Origin: Candidatus Beckwithbacteria bacterium CG10_big_fil_rev_8_21_14_0_10_34_10
GTDB taxonomy: Bacteria > Patescibacteriota > Microgenomatia > UBA1400
DNA length: 59,042 bases
Reading direction: 5' to 3'
NCBI GenBank assembly: GCA_002773945.1
Contig: PEZT01000001.1
Span: forward strand, 71,565 to 130,606
Each line of letters opens with the position of its first letter. The first letter of the stretch is position 1. The translations under genes were made by a program, and so were the position numbers. Below the pieces are notes generated by a model. The model searched no databases. It was not told the DNA's origin and saw only the letters and a program-made list of their open reading frames with translations. Below, piece by piece: positions 48,638 through 55,369 of the stretch.

Positions 48638-49681
48638 TTAAGCTGTTTTTAATTTTTGCTCCACATACAGTTTTATCAATGGTGCAAATTTTTGAATATT
48701 ATAAACACCTAGAATCAATTTTGTATTAGTATCTTGGTGTTTATCTGGATCAAAATCAGAAATAGTTGACCAGTCTCTATCAGGATTTGCAAATTCCAAT
48801 GTTCCAGAATATTGTCCATCTCTGTTAAATCCCCCTGTTTTATCAATGGTAAAACCTGTAGCTTCTTCAAGCTGTTTAAAATTATCTATTAAAGCCATAA
48901 TATTTTCTTTGAATAATAATTTAATTTTCCCAAAATCATCAATATCAACTTCAATAATATTACCATATCTATTATTAAATTTTTGCACTTTAGCTAAAAA
49001 TACGTCTTTATCTAACAAGTCAACACTTATTTCTGGTAATTCTGGTTTATGATGATTAACGTGGTCATTGATGGCACTAGCGACATCTTCTGCAGTAACT
49101 GTTTTCACCTGCAATATATTTCTGTGAGTTTGAGCAAAAATGCGAATACTTGATAGTTTTCCACTTTCATCATATGCTCTATGAAATAAGTCTCCTTCAT
49201 CACCTGGATATCCTTCAACTCTTCTTTTATGATCAAATATATTATTTAAAGCCCCCCCATATATTTTGTCATCAGAATATCTGTCTATTTGTGTTGAAGT
49301 TGGCTCTTGAGCTAATCTGTCCTCGTTATCTGTATTGTAATGATAGCCTCTAATTTGACTCTCTTGGCGAGCCATTCTATTTATTACTCTTTTATATCTT
49401 TCATAGACTTCTGGAGTGATACCGTCTTTAATCTGTTAGTTTAACTCTACTATCTGATCATAGATTTCCTTTTGGAAATCATATTCTCTCTGATTTTGCC
49501 TACGGATTTCTGGTAAAATCTCATTAGCATTTAAAGGGGTTACATCTTTACCTTTTATCTGCGTCACTTGCGTAAAAATATCTATTAATAAAGCGGTATT
49601 AAACAATTCATCTTCGTATTTTTTTTCATGCTGAAGTCCACCTATTTTAGTTAATTGATTATTCATTTGTTCATCAGACAT
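48638..49681 (-). pseudogene. Hypothetical ~347-aa gene interrupted by one in-frame TAA
   Basis: The 81-aa and 245-aa ORFs share a frame; the 60 nt between them are open (QIKDGITPEVYERYKRVINR); TTGACA-17-TATTAT promoter at 49756-49728. Confidence 0.65.
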
Positions 49682-50401: not shown

Positions 50402-50477
50402 TGGGTGGATGAGGGGAATCGCACCCCCGGCCTCTAATTCCACAGATTAGCGCTCTAACTACTGAGCTACATCCACC
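50402..50477 (-). tRNA. tRNA-His(GTG)
   Basis: G-1, GTGGATG/CATCCAC acceptor, CTAAT-CTGTGGA-ATTAG; T-loop TGCGATT. Confidence 0.93.
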
Positions 50478-50491
50478 ATAAAGGTATTTTA

Positions 50492-51154
50492 TCAGATCCG
50501 CGCGATTAAACAAAGATTGTAGCCTATTAAAAAGTTAGTTTTTTTCCCTTTTTTAGTGTAGTAGATATCTTTTATTTTAAAATTCTGTTTTTTAATAAGG
50601 TCTTTTAGTTCTTTTTTAGTATAAGAATAAAGAATTCTATCTATTTTTCTAGTTGGTTTTATTCCATCAGACAGAAAGTAGGGGATTGAAATAATTTTAT
50701 TTTTTCTCTGTTTAAAGTGGGTTTTTAGATATTTTGCTTGCCAGAGGTTCCAGGTGGTTAGAAAAAGAGTTCCATTTTTCTTAAGATGTTTTTTAATCTG
50801 TTTAATAGTGTTTTCCTGGTCTTTTTTAGAAGTTAAGTGGTGGAAAACAGCTAAGCAAAATATATAGTCAAATTTACCTATATTTTTATAAGTACTATCT
50901 TTGGTTATATCAGCCAGAAAAAATTTACTATTGGGGTGGTTTTTTTTAGCAATTTCTAAAAGTTTTTCGGAGTTATCTATTCCAAAATAATTTATTTGCT
51001 TGCCTTTTAAAAGGTTTAAAAGCCTACCATTGCCGCAACCTAAATCTAAAACCCTGGTTCCTTTTTTAACCCTATCAGTAAAGTCTTTAAATTCTGGCCA
51101 GTTTTTATTTCTGGTCTCTGAGAAATGAGAGGCAATAATGTTATAATTAGTCAT
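50492..51154 (-). CDS. Trm9/ALKBH8-like SAM methyltransferase (putative tRNA cm5U methyltransferase)
   Basis: YNIIASHFSETR..WP, LDLGCGNGR, GIDNS..LLEIA, FD..FCLAVFHHL, ..TTW. Confidence 0.72.
   Translation of the reverse strand: MTNYNIIASHFSETRNKNWPEFKDFTDRVKKGTRVLDLGCGNGRLLNLLKGKQINYFGIDNSEKLLEIAKKNHPNSKFFLADITKDSTYKNIGKFDYIFCLAVFHHLTSKKDQENTIKQIKKHLKKNGTLFLTTWNLWQAKYLKTHFKQRKNKIISIPYFLSDGIKPTRKIDRILYSYTKKELKDLIKKQNFKIKDIYYTKKGKKTNFLIGYNLCLIARI
51139..51147 (+). promoter_or_regulatory. Extended -10 promoter giving a leaderless elp3 transcript
   Basis: TG-t-TATAAT, 7 nt before ATG 51155, inside the divergent methyltransferase ORF. Confidence 0.7.
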
Positions 51155-52729
51155 ATGAAAAAGCTTGTTTTAGATCTTTTATCTCAATCATATTTAAATG
51201 CTAAGATTTTAGCAAGTTTTAAGCGAAAATTTGCCAAAAAAACCGGTCTTTTCCCTAAAAACAGTCTCCTTTTAGCTCAATACTGGCAAATGGTAAAAAT
51301 GGGAGAAATCAAGCCTAAAGCCTCCTTTGAAAAAGCTTTGCGCCTAAAAAAAGTTAGGTCTTTATCCGGCATTATTCCAGTGGCGGTTTTAACCAAACCT
51401 TACCCTTGCCCAGGCAGGTGTGTCTATTGTCCGACTCAGGTCAATATGCCAAAAAGCTACTTAGATGATGAACCAGCCGTTATGAGGGCTAAGCAAGCTT
51501 CCTTTAATCCCTCCTTACAGATGAAAAGAAGATTAAGACAACTTAAAGAAACTGGTCATAGTCTGGAAAAAATTGAATTAATTGTCATGGGAGGTACTTT
51601 TACCGCCTTGCCACATTCATATCAAAAATCTTTTATTAAAAAGTGTTTTGAAGCCGCTAATGGGGAAAAAAGTAAAACCCTGGCTGAGGCTCAAAAAACT
51701 AATCAAACTGCTAAAAATAGAATTATTGGTTTAACTTTGGAAACTAGACCTGATGAAATTAATATCAGTGAAATAAAAAGGATGAGAATTTTGGGTTGTA
51801 CCCGGGTGGAAATTGGAGTTCAAACTATTTATGATTCTATTTTAAAAAAAGTTAACCGAGGTCATTTAACCAAGGCAACTATTAAAGCCACCAAACTTTT
51901 AAAAGACGCGGGCATAAAAGTTTGTTATCACTTAATGCCTAATTTACCCGGAAGTCGCCTTTCCTTGGATTTTAAAATGTTTAAAGAAATATTTTCTAAT
52001 GAAAAATATATGCCTGATATGATAAAAATTTATCCCTGTGTGGTTTGTTACCAAGCCAAGCTTTACCAGTGGTTTAAAAAAGGGAAGTATAAACCATATA
52101 AAGATGAGGAATTAATTAAACTTCTTTTAAAAATTAAAAAGATTGTGCCTGCCTGGGTGAGGATAAACCGGTTAGGCCGGGATATACCGGTTAATAATAT
52201 TGCCGCTGGGAATAAATTATCTAATATTAGACAAGTCTTGGAAAAGAGAAAAGATTTTCAGTGTCAGTGCATTAGATGCCGGGAAATAAAGGAAAAGGGG
52301 AGTTTAAATAGTAAAAGAGTTAAGTTTAATCAAATAAAGTATTCTAGCTCTGGTGGAGAGGAATATTTCTTAGAATATACTGATAAAGAAAACCATCTTT
52401 TTGCATTACTCCGATTAAGAATTCCCAGCCAGATTTTTTCTAAGAAAAACCATTTTATCCCAGAACTTGAAAATAGCTCTATTATAAGAGAGCTTCATAC
52501 TTATGGAGAGTCTTTGCCTTTGGGGAAAAAAGGGCAAGCGAGTCAACACTTAGGTTTAGGAAAAAAACTTTTAAAAAAGGCTGAGGAAATTACTAAAAAT
52601 CTGGGGATTAAAAAAATAGCGGTCATCTCTGGTATTGGAGTTAGAGAATATTACCAAAAAATGTGGTATAAACTTCAAAACACCTATATGATAAAAAACC
52701 TTAATCTAAAAAATTTGACAAAGAAGTAA
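51155..52729 (+). CDS. elp3: Elp3-type tRNA U34 carboxymethyltransferase (radical SAM + KAT domains)
   Basis: CPGRCVYCP, GGTF, LETRPD, RVEIGVQ, KIYP, RDIP, CQCIRCRE, IRELHTYG, QHLGLG, ISGIGVREYY. Confidence 0.92.
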   Translation: MKKLVLDLLSQSYLNAKILASFKRKFAKKTGLFPKNSLLLAQYWQMVKMGEIKPKASFEKALRLKKVRSLSGIIPVAVLTKPYPCPGRCVYCPTQVNMPKSYLDDEPAVMRAKQASFNPSLQMKRRLRQLKETGHSLEKIELIVMGGTFTALPHSYQKSFIKKCFEAANGEKSKTLAEAQKTNQTAKNRIIGLTLETRPDEINISEIKRMRILGCTRVEIGVQTIYDSILKKVNRGHLTKATIKATKLLKDAGIKVCYHLMPNLPGSRLSLDFKMFKEIFSNEKYMPDMIKIYPCVVCYQAKLYQWFKKGKYKPYKDEELIKLLLKIKKIVPAWVRINRLGRDIPVNNIAAGNKLSNIRQVLEKRKDFQCQCIRCREIKEKGSLNSKRVKFNQIKYSSSGGEEYFLEYTDKENHLFALLRLRIPSQIFSKKNHFIPELENSSIIRELHTYGESLPLGKKGQASQHLGLGKKLLKKAEEITKNLGIKKIAVISGIGVREYYQKMWYKLQNTYMIKNLNLKNLTKK

Positions 52730-52777: not shown

Positions 52778-53125
52778 ATGACAGTTATATACGGAGTTAA
52801 TCCAAAAAAACCATATACTTGCCAAGATGTCCTTGGGGCAATTGAAAGATGCTTTGTTAAAGCCCACGATGATGTTCTTAATAAAGAAATGACTAGCGAA
52901 GCTCAACAATTTAATCCTCAAGAATTAGAGAATCTAAAAAAATTAAGTGTGCTTCAATTAATAAAGGATATTTTTAAAGAAATTGGGGGTAACTATGAAA
53001 ACCCAACTAAAGAAAATTTAATCGGAGTTTGTGACAAACTAGCAGAATACTCTAAAATGTATCGTTTTCCTGAAGCAATTAAAAAGCATTATGAAGAAAT
53101 AATGCAGCTAGTAGACGGACTTTAA
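52778..53125 (+). CDS. Conserved-looking hypothetical helical protein
   Basis: 115-aa ORF with AAGGA SD. Confidence 0.65.
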   Translation: MTVIYGVNPKKPYTCQDVLGAIERCFVKAHDDVLNKEMTSEAQQFNPQELENLKKLSVLQLIKDIFKEIGGNYENPTKENLIGVCDKLAEYSKMYRFPEAIKKHYEEIMQLVDGL

Positions 53126-53207
53126 AAACAGCTAATCAAGATCACTCTTTTAAGTTAAAAATTCTAGACCACACACACAAAAACTAAAAAATTAAAATTT
53201 TTTTTAG

Positions 53208-53395: not shown

Positions 53396-53469
53396 GGGTG
53401 AGTAGCTCAGTTGGCTAGAGCATCCGGTTTACATCCGGAAGGTCACAGGTTCGAGTCCTGTCTCACCCA
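53396..53469 (+). tRNA. tRNA-Val(TAC)
   Basis: GGGTGAG/CTCACCC, TCCGG-TTTACAT-CCGGA. Confidence 0.96.
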
Positions 53470-53496
53470 CAAAAAACACTAAACATATTTATATAT

Positions 53497-53569
53497 GTCC
53501 CAGTAGCTCAGGGGACAGAGCAACTGTCTTCTAAACAGTAGGCCGGAGGTTCGAATCCTCCCTGGGACA
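53497..53569 (+). tRNA. tRNA-Arg(TCT)
   Basis: GTCCCAG/CTGGGAC, ACTGT-CTTCTAA-ACAGT. Confidence 0.95.
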
Positions 53570-53574
53570 CAAAT

Positions 53575-53656
53575 GCCGAGGTGGTGGAACTGGTAGACAC
53601 GCAGTCTTGAGGAGGCTGTGCTTTCGGGCATGGAGGTTCGAGTCCTCTCCTCGGCA
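53575..53656 (+). tRNA. tRNA-Leu(GAG)
   Basis: GCCGAGG/CCTCGGC, CAGTC-TTGAGGA-GGCTG, variable arm. Confidence 0.95.
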
Positions 53657-53683
53657 CAAAATATGATAGAATAGTTTTTGAAT

Positions 53684-53756
53684 GCCGGAGTAGCCAAGGC
53701 AGTCAAGGCACGAGTCTGAAAAACTTGGGATACAGGTGCAATTCCTGTCTCCGGCA
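53684..53756 (+). tRNA. tRNA-Phe(GAA), non-canonical D and T loops
   Basis: GCCGGAG/CTCCGGC, CGAGT-CTGAAAA-ACTTG, T-loop TGCAATT. Confidence 0.88.
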
Positions 53757-53764
53757 CTATTATT

Positions 53765-53836
53765 GCGGGTGTAGTTCAGTAGTAGAACGTTTCCTTGCCA
53801 AGGAAAAGGTCGTGGGTGCGAATCCCATCACCCGCT
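53765..53836 (+). tRNA. tRNA-Gly(GCC)
   Basis: GCGGGTG/CACCCGC, TTTCC-TTGCCAA-GGAAA, T-loop TGCGAAT. Confidence 0.93.
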
Positions 53837-53858
53837 CATTTAAGGTAAAATACTCTCC

Positions 53859-54431
53859 ATGAACTCATTTCTAAATGAAAAGAAATTTTTATTTATTGGT
53901 TTAATATCTGGTTCTTTCTTAGGCTGCTTACTAATTTTTAAGCTTCAAAAGAATATTAAGGTTTTAGAAAAACAGGAACAAAAAGGAATAGAAATCAGCT
54001 ATAATCAACTTCCTAATCCTTCAGTTTTAATTCCTCCAAGTCCTTCTCCTAGTCCTTCGCCAATACCAACACCAAAACCAAGTCCTTCTCCCTTGCCATC
54101 ACCATCTCCCTCTCCTGAGCCTAAAATATATCCTACCAGCCAGGAGTTGGATTCTAGTTTTGCTAAATACGCTACTGAATATAGGCTTGATTTAAATATC
54201 TTAAGACAATTAGCTTCCTGTGAATCTGGTTTTAATACTTATGCTGTTAATAATCCTTATGCTGGACTTTATCAATTTAATTCTACTTCATGGATTAACA
54301 CCAGAAAAAGAATGGGCCTAAACCCTGATCCTGACTTAAGATTTAACTGGGAGGAATCAATTAAAACAGCTGCTTTTAAAATATCCCAAGATGGTTTAGG
54401 ATCTTGGCCTAGTTGTCAAAATAAACTTTGA
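53859..54431 (+). CDS. Rpf/SLT-like lytic transglycosylase with Pro/Ser linker
   Basis: TM, PSPSPSP linker, LASCESG, YAGLYQF..TSW, SWPSC. Confidence 0.82.
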   Translation: MNSFLNEKKFLFIGLISGSFLGCLLIFKLQKNIKVLEKQEQKGIEISYNQLPNPSVLIPPSPSPSPSPIPTPKPSPSPLPSPSPSPEPKIYPTSQELDSSFAKYATEYRLDLNILRQLASCESGFNTYAVNNPYAGLYQFNSTSWINTRKRMGLNPDPDLRFNWEESIKTAAFKISQDGLGSWPSCQNKL

Positions 54432-54581: not shown

Positions 54582-55283
54582 ATGGTTCATTATACAGAAG
54601 AAAAAACAAAAGCTATAAAGTTGAGAAAAAACGGATTAAGTTACAGCGAAATAATAAAAAAAGTTAAAGTCTCAAAGTCAACGCTATCTTATTGGTTATC
54701 TAATATTAAATTAAATAAAAAACAACAAAACAGAATTAATAAGAAAAAAACCCTAGGAAGACTTAAGGCTTTAGAAAGAATTAAACAAAAAAGAAAAAAA
54801 ATTACCAATTTTCTTCTTAAAAAAGGAAAAACAGATATTGGTAAAATAAGTCAAAGAGATCTATTTATTTTGGGAATAGCTCTTTATTGGGCAGAAGGAG
54901 CTAAACAAAAAGCGTCTGATATCTCTCATAGGGTATCATTTAGTAATTCTGATCCCAAAATGATAAAAACATTTTTAATATGGTTAATAAATAGCTGCAA
55001 AATAACCAAAGAACAACTTTCTTTTGAACTCTATATCCATAAAGAAATAGATAAAAAAACTGTTAAGCTTATTAAAAATTTTTGGCTAAAAACACTTAAA
55101 ATTAATGGAAATTTCCTAAAAATCCGTTATAAGAAACACCAAATTAACAAACTGAAAAATTTAAAAACTTATTATGGATTAATAAGAATTGATGTCCAAA
55201 AAAGTACCAATTTTAACAGATTAATAAAAGGTTGGATTTTGGGAATAGCCAATAATCTAAATAATAATTGGGGAGTGGTGTAG
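54582..55283 (+). CDS. HTH + LAGLIDADG-like protein overlapping the tRNA-Gln 5' end
   Basis: LRKNGLSYSEI..VSKSTLSYW HTH; GIALYWAEG; FSNSDPKMI; ends NWGVV* inside the tRNA. Confidence 0.72.
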   Translation: MVHYTEEKTKAIKLRKNGLSYSEIIKKVKVSKSTLSYWLSNIKLNKKQQNRINKKKTLGRLKALERIKQKRKKITNFLLKKGKTDIGKISQRDLFILGIALYWAEGAKQKASDISHRVSFSNSDPKMIKTFLIWLINSCKITKEQLSFELYIHKEIDKKTVKLIKNFWLKTLKINGNFLKIRYKKHQINKLKNLKTYYGLIRIDVQKSTNFNRLIKGWILGIANNLNNNWGVV

Positions 55284-55340
55284 CGGTAGCACGTCTGCCT
55301 TTGAAGCAGAAGATCCTAGGTTCGAATCCTAGCTCCCCAG
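55269..55340 (+). tRNA. tRNA-Gln(TTG)
   Basis: TGGGGAG/CTCCCCA, TCTGC-CTTTGAA-GCAGA, GTTCGAATC. Confidence 0.95.
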
Positions 55341-55369
55341 CATTATAATAAAATTGCCATAATTCAACT

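Follow-up and report, generated by a model that had tools for sequence, protein, structure and literature searches.

A head-to-head elp3/trm9-like gene pair as a candidate wobble-uridine modification pathway in Patescibacteria

A candidate pathway encoded by two divergent genes

We analysed a stretch of 59,042 nucleotides (hereafter the window) from contig PEZT01000001.1 of Candidatus Beckwithbacteria bacterium CG10_big_fil_rev_8_21_14_0_10_34_10 (Patescibacteriota), in which a gene for Elp3 and a gene for a Trm9-like methyltransferase lie head to head. The gene content, family relationships, residue conservation, synteny and phyletic pattern observed here point to a self-contained wobble-uridine pathway of archaeal/eukaryotic type in a bacterium: Elp3 would produce 5-carboxymethyluridine at position 34 of tRNA (cm5U34), and the Trm9-like protein would convert it to 5-methoxycarbonylmethyluridine or its 2-thio form (mcm5(s2)U) without a free-standing Trm112. 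We put the probability of this reading, which is built on sequence comparison, at about 0.65.

We infer the individual chemical steps, the substrate tRNAs and the independence from Trm112 as follows. Elp3, a radical S-adenosylmethionine (SAM) enzyme, would use acetyl-CoA to add a carboxymethyl group to C5 of U34, giving cm5U in those tRNAs of the genome that decode codons with a purine at the end, namely Glu UUC, Lys UUU, Gln UUG, Arg UCU, Leu UAA and possibly further ones. The Trm9-family methyltransferase would then esterify the carboxyl group with SAM to yield mcm5U34, and the bacterial thiolase MnmA would add the s2 group on the Glu, Gln and Lys tRNAs to give mcm5s2U. In the genome of the window the pair would replace MnmE/MnmG, and the methyltransferase of this phylum would act without a free-standing Trm112 activator. 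A shared divergent control region of near-zero length may couple the expression of the two genes.

Identity of Elp3 and of its divergent neighbour

Elp3 is encoded by an open reading frame (ORF) of 524 amino acids at 51155..52729 on the plus strand. Its description in the initial annotation as a full enzyme with radical SAM and lysine acetyltransferase (KAT) parts is borne out: the protein matches TIGR01211 end to end (556.8 bits against a cut-off of 350; model positions 7–522 of 522) and carries the radical SAM cysteines CxxxCxxC at residues 85–92 and the acetyl-CoA motif QxxGxG at residue 464. Pfam recognises Radical_SAM and Radical_SAM_C, with no GNAT match at E ≤ 0.01. Matches in PDB include two single-subunit enzymes like that of the window, Elp3 of Methanocaldococcus infernus (6iaz, 6.9e-131) and of Dehalococcoides mccartyi (DmcElp3; 5l7j, 9.3e-121), and these alignments reach residue 515–516 of 524. 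A CxCxxC triad at residues 370–375, between the domains, where bacterial and archaeal Elp3 typically have one, may by its position be equated with the zinc site described in the available part of PMC6367351. The N-terminal 75 residues are basic (17 K/R versus 3 D/E). A long basic N-terminal extension of archaeal-type Elp3 is linked to tRNA binding in the same part of that paper (Lin et al., PMC6367351); such an N-terminus is present in the window Elp3 but not in DmcElp3.

The neighbouring gene (50492..51154, minus strand, 220-aa ORF) encodes a class I SAM methyltransferase of the Trm9 family, predicted to act as a tRNA cm5U34 carboxyl-methyltransferase. Every motif quoted for it earlier is present: YNIIASHFSETRNKNWP at residues 4–20, DLGCGNG at 37–43 and AVFHH at 102–106, followed by TTWNLWQ. 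Pfam matched only generic methyltransferase families (13 of them; best Methyltransf_23, 6.8e-22), and no NCBIfam model reached the score required for it (the best gave 56.3 bits, its cut-off being 155). The best PDB relative is Trm9 of Yarrowia lipolytica (5cm2_Z, 55.2 bits, E 6.6e-14; next 35.1 bits). A family profile (A1) built from 56 family members gave 99.4 bits (1.9e-27) with the same structure, the next three scoring 82.6, 81.8 and 80.2. The Trm9 match extends over the C-terminal half of the protein, while most other PDB matches cover the SAM-binding half only.

Database labels of family members range from TRM9 or ‘alkB family protein 8’ to ‘UbiE’ (JGI); NCBI labels them class I SAM-dependent methyltransferases, and ESM Atlas gave only generically named methyltransferase clusters, from the Candidate Phyla Radiation (CPR), Chloroflexota and Thermoplasmatota. 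Going by the JGI labels, the methyltransferase domain of ALKBH8 probably resembles the window protein. In a phylogenetic tree the family was separated from two paralogues of the window's genome (92% SH-aLRT); truncated sequences (L062, L066) and sequences without the family signature (L075, L080, L090) were left out of this tree. The family profile also aligns with a protein from a haloarchaeon (L095:6156-6869), at 99.8% probability (E 2.4e-30). According to the available part of PMC6144793, mcm5U in Haloferax volcanii (Halobacteriales) needs Trm9 (HVO_1032) together with Trm112, and the haloarchaeal member would be an orthologue of HVO_1032. We conclude that, as far as sequence can tell, the methyltransferase is a Trm9-family protein. 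This agrees with the initial annotation, since Trm9 is the closest solved relative and the functionally mapped residues are kept; clustering with small-molecule methyltransferases, named there as grounds for abandoning the idea, was not seen.

For Trm9 of S. cerevisiae (ScTrm9), the portion of Letoquart et al. at hand (PMC4678810) reports that alanine mutants of R29, D72, H116, W145, W168, R241, Y243 and N271 abolish or strongly lower activity. We derived the corresponding window residues from HMMER alignments of the window protein and of the family profile with 5cm2_Z, and compared them with relatives from 80 related loci that a pattern scan of species-representative genomes for methyltransferase relatives had yielded (73 of the 80 gave an ORF; 72 proteins fell within 150–330 aa). 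Five of the eight residues are directly kept: R29 (window R15; kept in 68/72 relatives), D72 (D60; 71/72), H116 (H106; 68/72), W145 (W135; 69/72) and R241 (R173; 70/72). The pairwise alignment stops at residue 201, and a sixth, N271, is matched to N213 via the family alignment (kept in 64/72). W168 is replaced conservatively by Y159, which keeps the aromatic character, and Y243 is lost (L175), tyrosine being found there in 35 of 72 relatives. Of 73 sequences, 33 show the strict pattern [IVLFMA]-P-[WYF] at the W168 place, with W in 25 cases, F in 5 and Y in 3; the remaining sequences mostly have W after another residue, as judged by eye and uncounted. Three proteins (L075, L080, L090) lack the family signature, and the same three loci lack Elp3.

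These two substitutions bear on a different possibility, namely that the methyltransferase does act with Elp3 on U34 but at another step, on another atom or intermediate, so that the product is not mcm5U. The Y243 equivalent is not conserved and the W168 place holds Y or F in a minority of members including that of the window; in addition, archaea are reported to contain several cm5U derivatives (PMC5372719, as far as its accessible text goes). In contrast, R29, H116, W145, R241 and N271, which surround the modelled SAM methyl group and cm5U carboxyl, are conserved, and we consider a different step improbable.

Linkage of the two genes in related loci

When the 80 related loci were searched by tblastn with the window Elp3, 53 proved to have an Elp3 gene in their flank. 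In 50 of these 53 Elp3 lies upstream on the opposite strand, and in 38 the match ends are at most 500 nt apart. The other three comprise two loci with an adjacent co-directional Elp3 (L018, L067) and one with Elp3 3.8 kb away (L039). Elp3 is lacking from 27 loci, and in five of these the upstream DNA is shorter than 1.2 kb. Because Elp3 flanks 53 of 80 loci encoding methyltransferase relatives, the pairing is far beyond chance, and tight divergent spacing is the rule in the relatives. By submitter labels the 53 loci come from many lineages of Patescibacteria, from Chloroflexota, Acidobacteriota and Fermentibacteria, and from DPANN and Crenarchaeota archaea. Conservation of the linkage, which had been proposed as a check, is seen in two phyla of bacteria as well as in some archaea.

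Ten loci labelled Gammaproteobacteria or Bdellovibrionales (L026, L028, L029, L031, L039, L042, L047, L049, L054, L071) group with CPR in the tree; the labels of these metagenome-assembled genomes may be wrong.

Such tight and old coupling of the genes could also reflect a physical complex of the two proteins, or a methyltransferase that modifies or regulates Elp3 rather than tRNA. However, the orientation is divergent and not operonic, and the residues with which Trm9 binds its substrate are conserved. We also found neither an Elp3-methyltransferase fusion nor ALKBH8 among the longer proteins (two matches, both PF03808-fused), which is weak evidence in the same direction. We consider a complex or regulatory role very unlikely as the explanation of the pair.

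Phyletic pattern and exclusion of MnmG

The genome of the window (1.03 Mb in 31 contigs, 96.7% complete) was searched for the enzymes that modify U34 in most bacteria. Neither MnmE (best 35.6 bits against a cut-off of 252.6) nor MnmG (best 16.9 bits against 524.85) was found there, answering a question that the initial annotation had raised, and MnmA is present (322 bits).

We extended the search to 151 genomes of the window's phylum, its own included. Elp3 is encoded in 66 and a methyltransferase orthologue (E ≤ 1e-31, near full length) in 55 of them; both occur in 53 genomes, the methyltransferase without Elp3 in two (G068, G069), Elp3 without the methyltransferase in 13, and neither in 83. 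The genes are divergent on one contig in 41 of the 53 pairs, with at most 252 nt between match ends in 40 and 569 nt in one; two further pairs are 1.1 and 3.5 kb apart, and ten are on different contigs. MnmG occurs in 11 of the 151 genomes, none of them with Elp3, and MnmA in 136, including 65 of the 66 Elp3 genomes. In 74 genomes of the sample there is neither Elp3 nor MnmG.

Eleven of the 13 Elp3-only loci (L098-L108) were inspected, and no ORF of the family was seen within 3.5 kb. All five genomes of family f22 are among the 13; at four f22 loci the gene beside elp3 encodes a protein whose N-terminus, as judged by eye, resembles that of nucleoside diphosphate kinase.

A second sample, of 121 Chloroflexota genomes, for which the methyltransferase threshold (E ≤ 1e-25) was fixed before the search, gave Elp3 in 23 genomes and the methyltransferase in exactly those 23, with zero discordant cases; in 20 of these 23 pairs the genes diverge from each other on the same contig. 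MnmG is found in 61 of the 121, none with Elp3 (omitting G193, an unpublished genome among the 61, leaves this unchanged), so that across both samples MnmG and Elp3 co-occur in 0 of 89 Elp3 genomes. In one small Chloroflexota genome the Elp3 matches residues 1–459 of 5l7j_A (DmcElp3) with 1062 bits, and its divergent neighbour, 43 nt off, is a 224-aa family member with the HH, VWN, VPW, RYY and N elements.

These data also speak to the possibility that the methyltransferase is CmoM-like or a small-molecule enzyme of the UbiE/UbiG kind and that its adjacency to elp3 is incidental. The generic Pfam matches, weak NCBIfam matches to UbiG, BioC and CmoB below their cut-offs, and the ‘UbiE’ label given to some relatives would fit such an enzyme. 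Yet both the synteny with Elp3 and the co-occurrence of the two genes hold across two phyla, and the three flank-less outliers without the family signature (L075, L080, L090) lack Elp3 as well. Nor were partners of the Cmo type, which would supply cmo5U, found in the window's genome: CmoA (TIGR00740) had no match, and the best CmoB (TIGR00452) score, 34.6 bits against 275, fell on the methyltransferase itself. An incidental neighbour of this kind is therefore extremely improbable.

The Trm112 question

No free-standing Trm112 was found in the window's genome, where the sole match to PF03966 is the N-terminus of another, 298-aa methyltransferase. The methyltransferase of the pair is hence classed as a Trm9-like homologue and not as a Trm9-Trm112 holoenzyme. 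The fused zinc ribbon is encoded at G000:C1:71491-72387 (L012:1486-2382), between a glycosyltransferase gene and genes resembling those for B12/radical-SAM proteins.

In the phylum sample PF03966 matched in 11 of 151 genomes, always within open frames of 286–758 aa and thus fused to other domains. No free-standing Trm112 frame was detected in any of the 151, in a search whose control recovered Trm112 in E. coli and four archaea. Of the 55 genomes that carry the methyltransferase, no more than 7 have so much as the fused form. The picture is different in Chloroflexota: PF03966 matched in 71 of the 121 genomes, among them 19 of the 23 with the pair, and 17 of these 23 have a Trm112 open frame of at most 165 aa. 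The Chloroflexota genome with the (near-)identical DmcElp3 had no PF03966 match. Two hydrophobic positions at which Yarrowia Trm9 contacts Trm112 (Yl V59 and F78) are occupied by K/R or polar residues in most bacterial members, a comparison made on the alignment only, and no difference was seen there between members of CPR type and of Chloroflexi type.

These results have to be set against the biochemistry of the known enzymes. Characterised Trm9 without Trm112 is insoluble or inactive (PMC4678810), and Trm112 is required for solubility and activity of eukaryotic and archaeal Trm9 (PMC4678810, PMC6144793), as the available portions of these papers describe. The same pathway might then operate with a methyltransferase that needs an activator, either the fused Trm112-methyltransferase acting in trans or an unrecognised analogue. 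For this speak the fused Trm112 domain encoded in the window's genome and the small frames of the Chloroflexota pair genomes. Against it stand the lack of any free-standing Trm112 in the phylum, the rarity of the fused form, the altered contact positions and the DmcElp3 genome without PF03966. We regard the need for an activator as unlikely. Since characterised Trm9 needs Trm112 and most Chloroflexota pair genomes carry a small Trm112, the phylum may nevertheless contain an activator that we did not recognise. Independence from Trm112, which had been suggested at the outset, is in the window's phylum well supported by gene content and can be predicted there; it does not generalise to the whole family.

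Besides the small Trm112 frames and the two substituted residues, several points weigh against the pathway proposed here. The margin of Trm9 over other solved methyltransferases, 17–20 bits, is real but modest, and the tree did not contain eukaryotic Trm9, ALKBH8 or HVO_1032 sequences. The orthologue threshold in the phylum sample was set after the score distribution had been viewed. Two genomes of that sample have the methyltransferase without Elp3, and because 13 have Elp3 and no methyltransferase, Elp3 can work without it. Finally, the sequencing runs listed for the locus are of groundwater DNA only, one of them containing all sampled words, and no RNA run was among them.

A broader version of the proposal would be that a two-gene, Trm112-independent Elp3/Trm9 module took the place of MnmEG in much of Patescibacteria and Chloroflexota, with Dehalococcoides among them, and makes mcm5s2U34 together with MnmA; for this wider claim we see somewhat less than even odds.

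The head-to-head junction

The two start codons stand back to back, CAT (51152–51154) directly abutting ATG (51155–51157), exactly as had been noted at first reading. The junction (51118..51157, no strand assigned) contains zero intergenic DNA and holds a promoter-like TG-TATAAT. An alternative in-frame ATG at 51125 would lengthen Elp3 by 10 residues and make both genes overlap; the start at 51155 is the simpler choice because in the shorter form TIGR01211 already matches from residue 9 onwards. The last base of TG-TATAAT is 51147, which leaves 7 nt to the start codon of Elp3, a spacing that hints at a leaderless elp3 mRNA. The element is a pattern match only, as the promoter scan gave 12 sites against 9.9 ± 3.4 in shuffled sequences; a terminator scan was likewise not above shuffles.

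Neighbouring tRNA genes and other features

The initial annotation had drawn attention to tRNA-His, tRNA-Arg(UCU) and tRNA-Gln(UUG) around the pair. ARAGORN and Rfam confirm all three, together with further tRNA genes. tRNA-His(GUG) (50403..50476, minus strand) starts 15 nt after the methyltransferase stop codon on the same strand and is probably co-transcribed with it, which we mention as context only; having no U34, it is probably not a substrate. On the other side lie tRNA-Leu(CAG) at 53207 and, at 53396–53837 and in this order, Val(TAC), Arg(TCT), Leu(GAG), Phe and Gly, the tRNA-Arg(UCU) gene occupying 53497..53570 on the plus strand; tRNA-Gln(UUG) follows at 55269..55341, also on the plus strand. 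By their anticodons tRNA-Arg(UCU) and tRNA-Gln(UUG) are likely substrates, but their proximity is not conserved: a tRNA gene occurs in 18 of the 80 related loci, mostly Arg(CCG). We thus rejected the neighbouring tRNA genes as a conserved link to the substrates, and of the earlier suggestion only their presence stands, the recurrent neighbour being tRNA-Arg(CCG/UCG). In 14 of the 80 loci that gene comes immediately after the Trm9-like gene and shares its strand (CCG in 10, UCG in 4: L016, L020, L022, L025-L027, L030, L032-L034, L041, L045, L050, L063), in the place that tRNA-His(GUG) takes in the window.

The genome as a whole has 44 tRNA genes, with U34 species for Glu, Lys, Gln, Arg(UCU), Leu(UAA) and others. 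A tRNA-Ile(UAU) gene is located outside the window (G000:C1:65470-65543), and only one of the 44 tRNAs has a CAT anticodon. TilS was not found in this genome; it is encoded in 70 of the 151 genomes of the phylum. A connection of Elp3 with loss of TilS or use of tRNA-Ile(UAU) was considered and rejected, as TilS is found in 31 of 66 Elp3 genomes and in 39 of the 85 others.

The pair is flanked by ORFs at 52778–53125, 48638–49375 and 49436–49681 (115, 245 and 81 aa), for which no Pfam family matched. Further away, Pfam identifies an SLT transglycosylase domain in the ORF at 53859–54431, where it follows a proline-rich linker, and an HTH domain in that at 54582–55283.

Relation to known systems and significance

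The best solved relative of the window methyltransferase is the class I SAM methyltransferase of yeast Trm9-Trm112 (5CM2, Y. lipolytica; also S. cerevisiae Trm9); the reaction predicted for the window protein is the same, cm5U34 to mcm5U34. Both proteins have the N-terminal Y..IA..FS.TR...WP helix, HH, W..Q, PW/PY, R.. and a C-terminal N. Unlike yeast Trm9, the window protein is bacterial, is encoded head to head with elp3 and without a Trm112 partner gene, is shorter (220 aa), and has L for ScY243 and Y for ScW168. Archaea with HVO_1032, and the S. solfataricus cluster, likewise combine a stand-alone Elp3 with a Trm9 homologue in a prokaryote; those archaea have Trm112 whereas the window's genome has no free-standing one, and the haloarchaeal family gene (L095), unlike that of the window, does not adjoin elp3. 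According to PMC2584109, the genes for Elp3 and Trm9 cluster in Sulfolobus solfataricus, and part of the archaea encode a Trm9 homologue; PMC5372719 reports Trm9 as limited to Sulfolobales and Halobacteriales. MnmE-MnmG, which also works with MnmA, likewise acts on C5 of U34 in split codon boxes, and MnmA thiolation would be shared; in contrast, its enzymes and chemistry are unrelated (cmnm5/nm5 versus cm5/mcm5), and MnmG is mutually exclusive with Elp3 in both samples.

One review states that Trm112-dependent methyltransferases have no detectable homologues in bacteria (PMC5372719); according to another, Dehalococcoides are the only bacteria with Elp3, and evidence for xcm5U derivatives is lacking there (PMC7663514). 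DmcElp3 is called ‘a rare example of bacterial Elp3s’ in PMC6367351; a more recent paper, PMC13315578, has Elp3 conserved in ‘numerous bacteria’. A full-text literature search returned no description of a bacterial Trm9 partner of Elp3, though Glatt et al. 2016 or supplements may mention one. The same search gave no paper joining Elp3 with ‘Candidate Phyla Radiation’, and none relevant for Elp3 with Patescibacteria among the matches listed. What appears to be new is a bacterial enzyme of the Trm9 family, apparently free of Trm112, head to head with Elp3 and with MnmG excluded.

The Elp3/Trm9-like pair is present in about one-third of the sampled genomes of the window's phylum and about one-fifth of the sampled Chloroflexota, always to the exclusion of MnmG. 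It predicts an in vivo role for bacterial Elp3 and names a candidate partner gene next to the crystallised DmcElp3, with a bearing on how split codon boxes are decoded in reduced genomes. A natural Trm9 that may act without Trm112 would be useful for understanding why Trm112 is needed elsewhere. If the broader version of the proposal is true, Bacteria would have their first mcm5U-type modification, made by a wobble pathway of hybrid kind in which the Trm9-like enzyme would be the first natural Trm9 active without Trm112.

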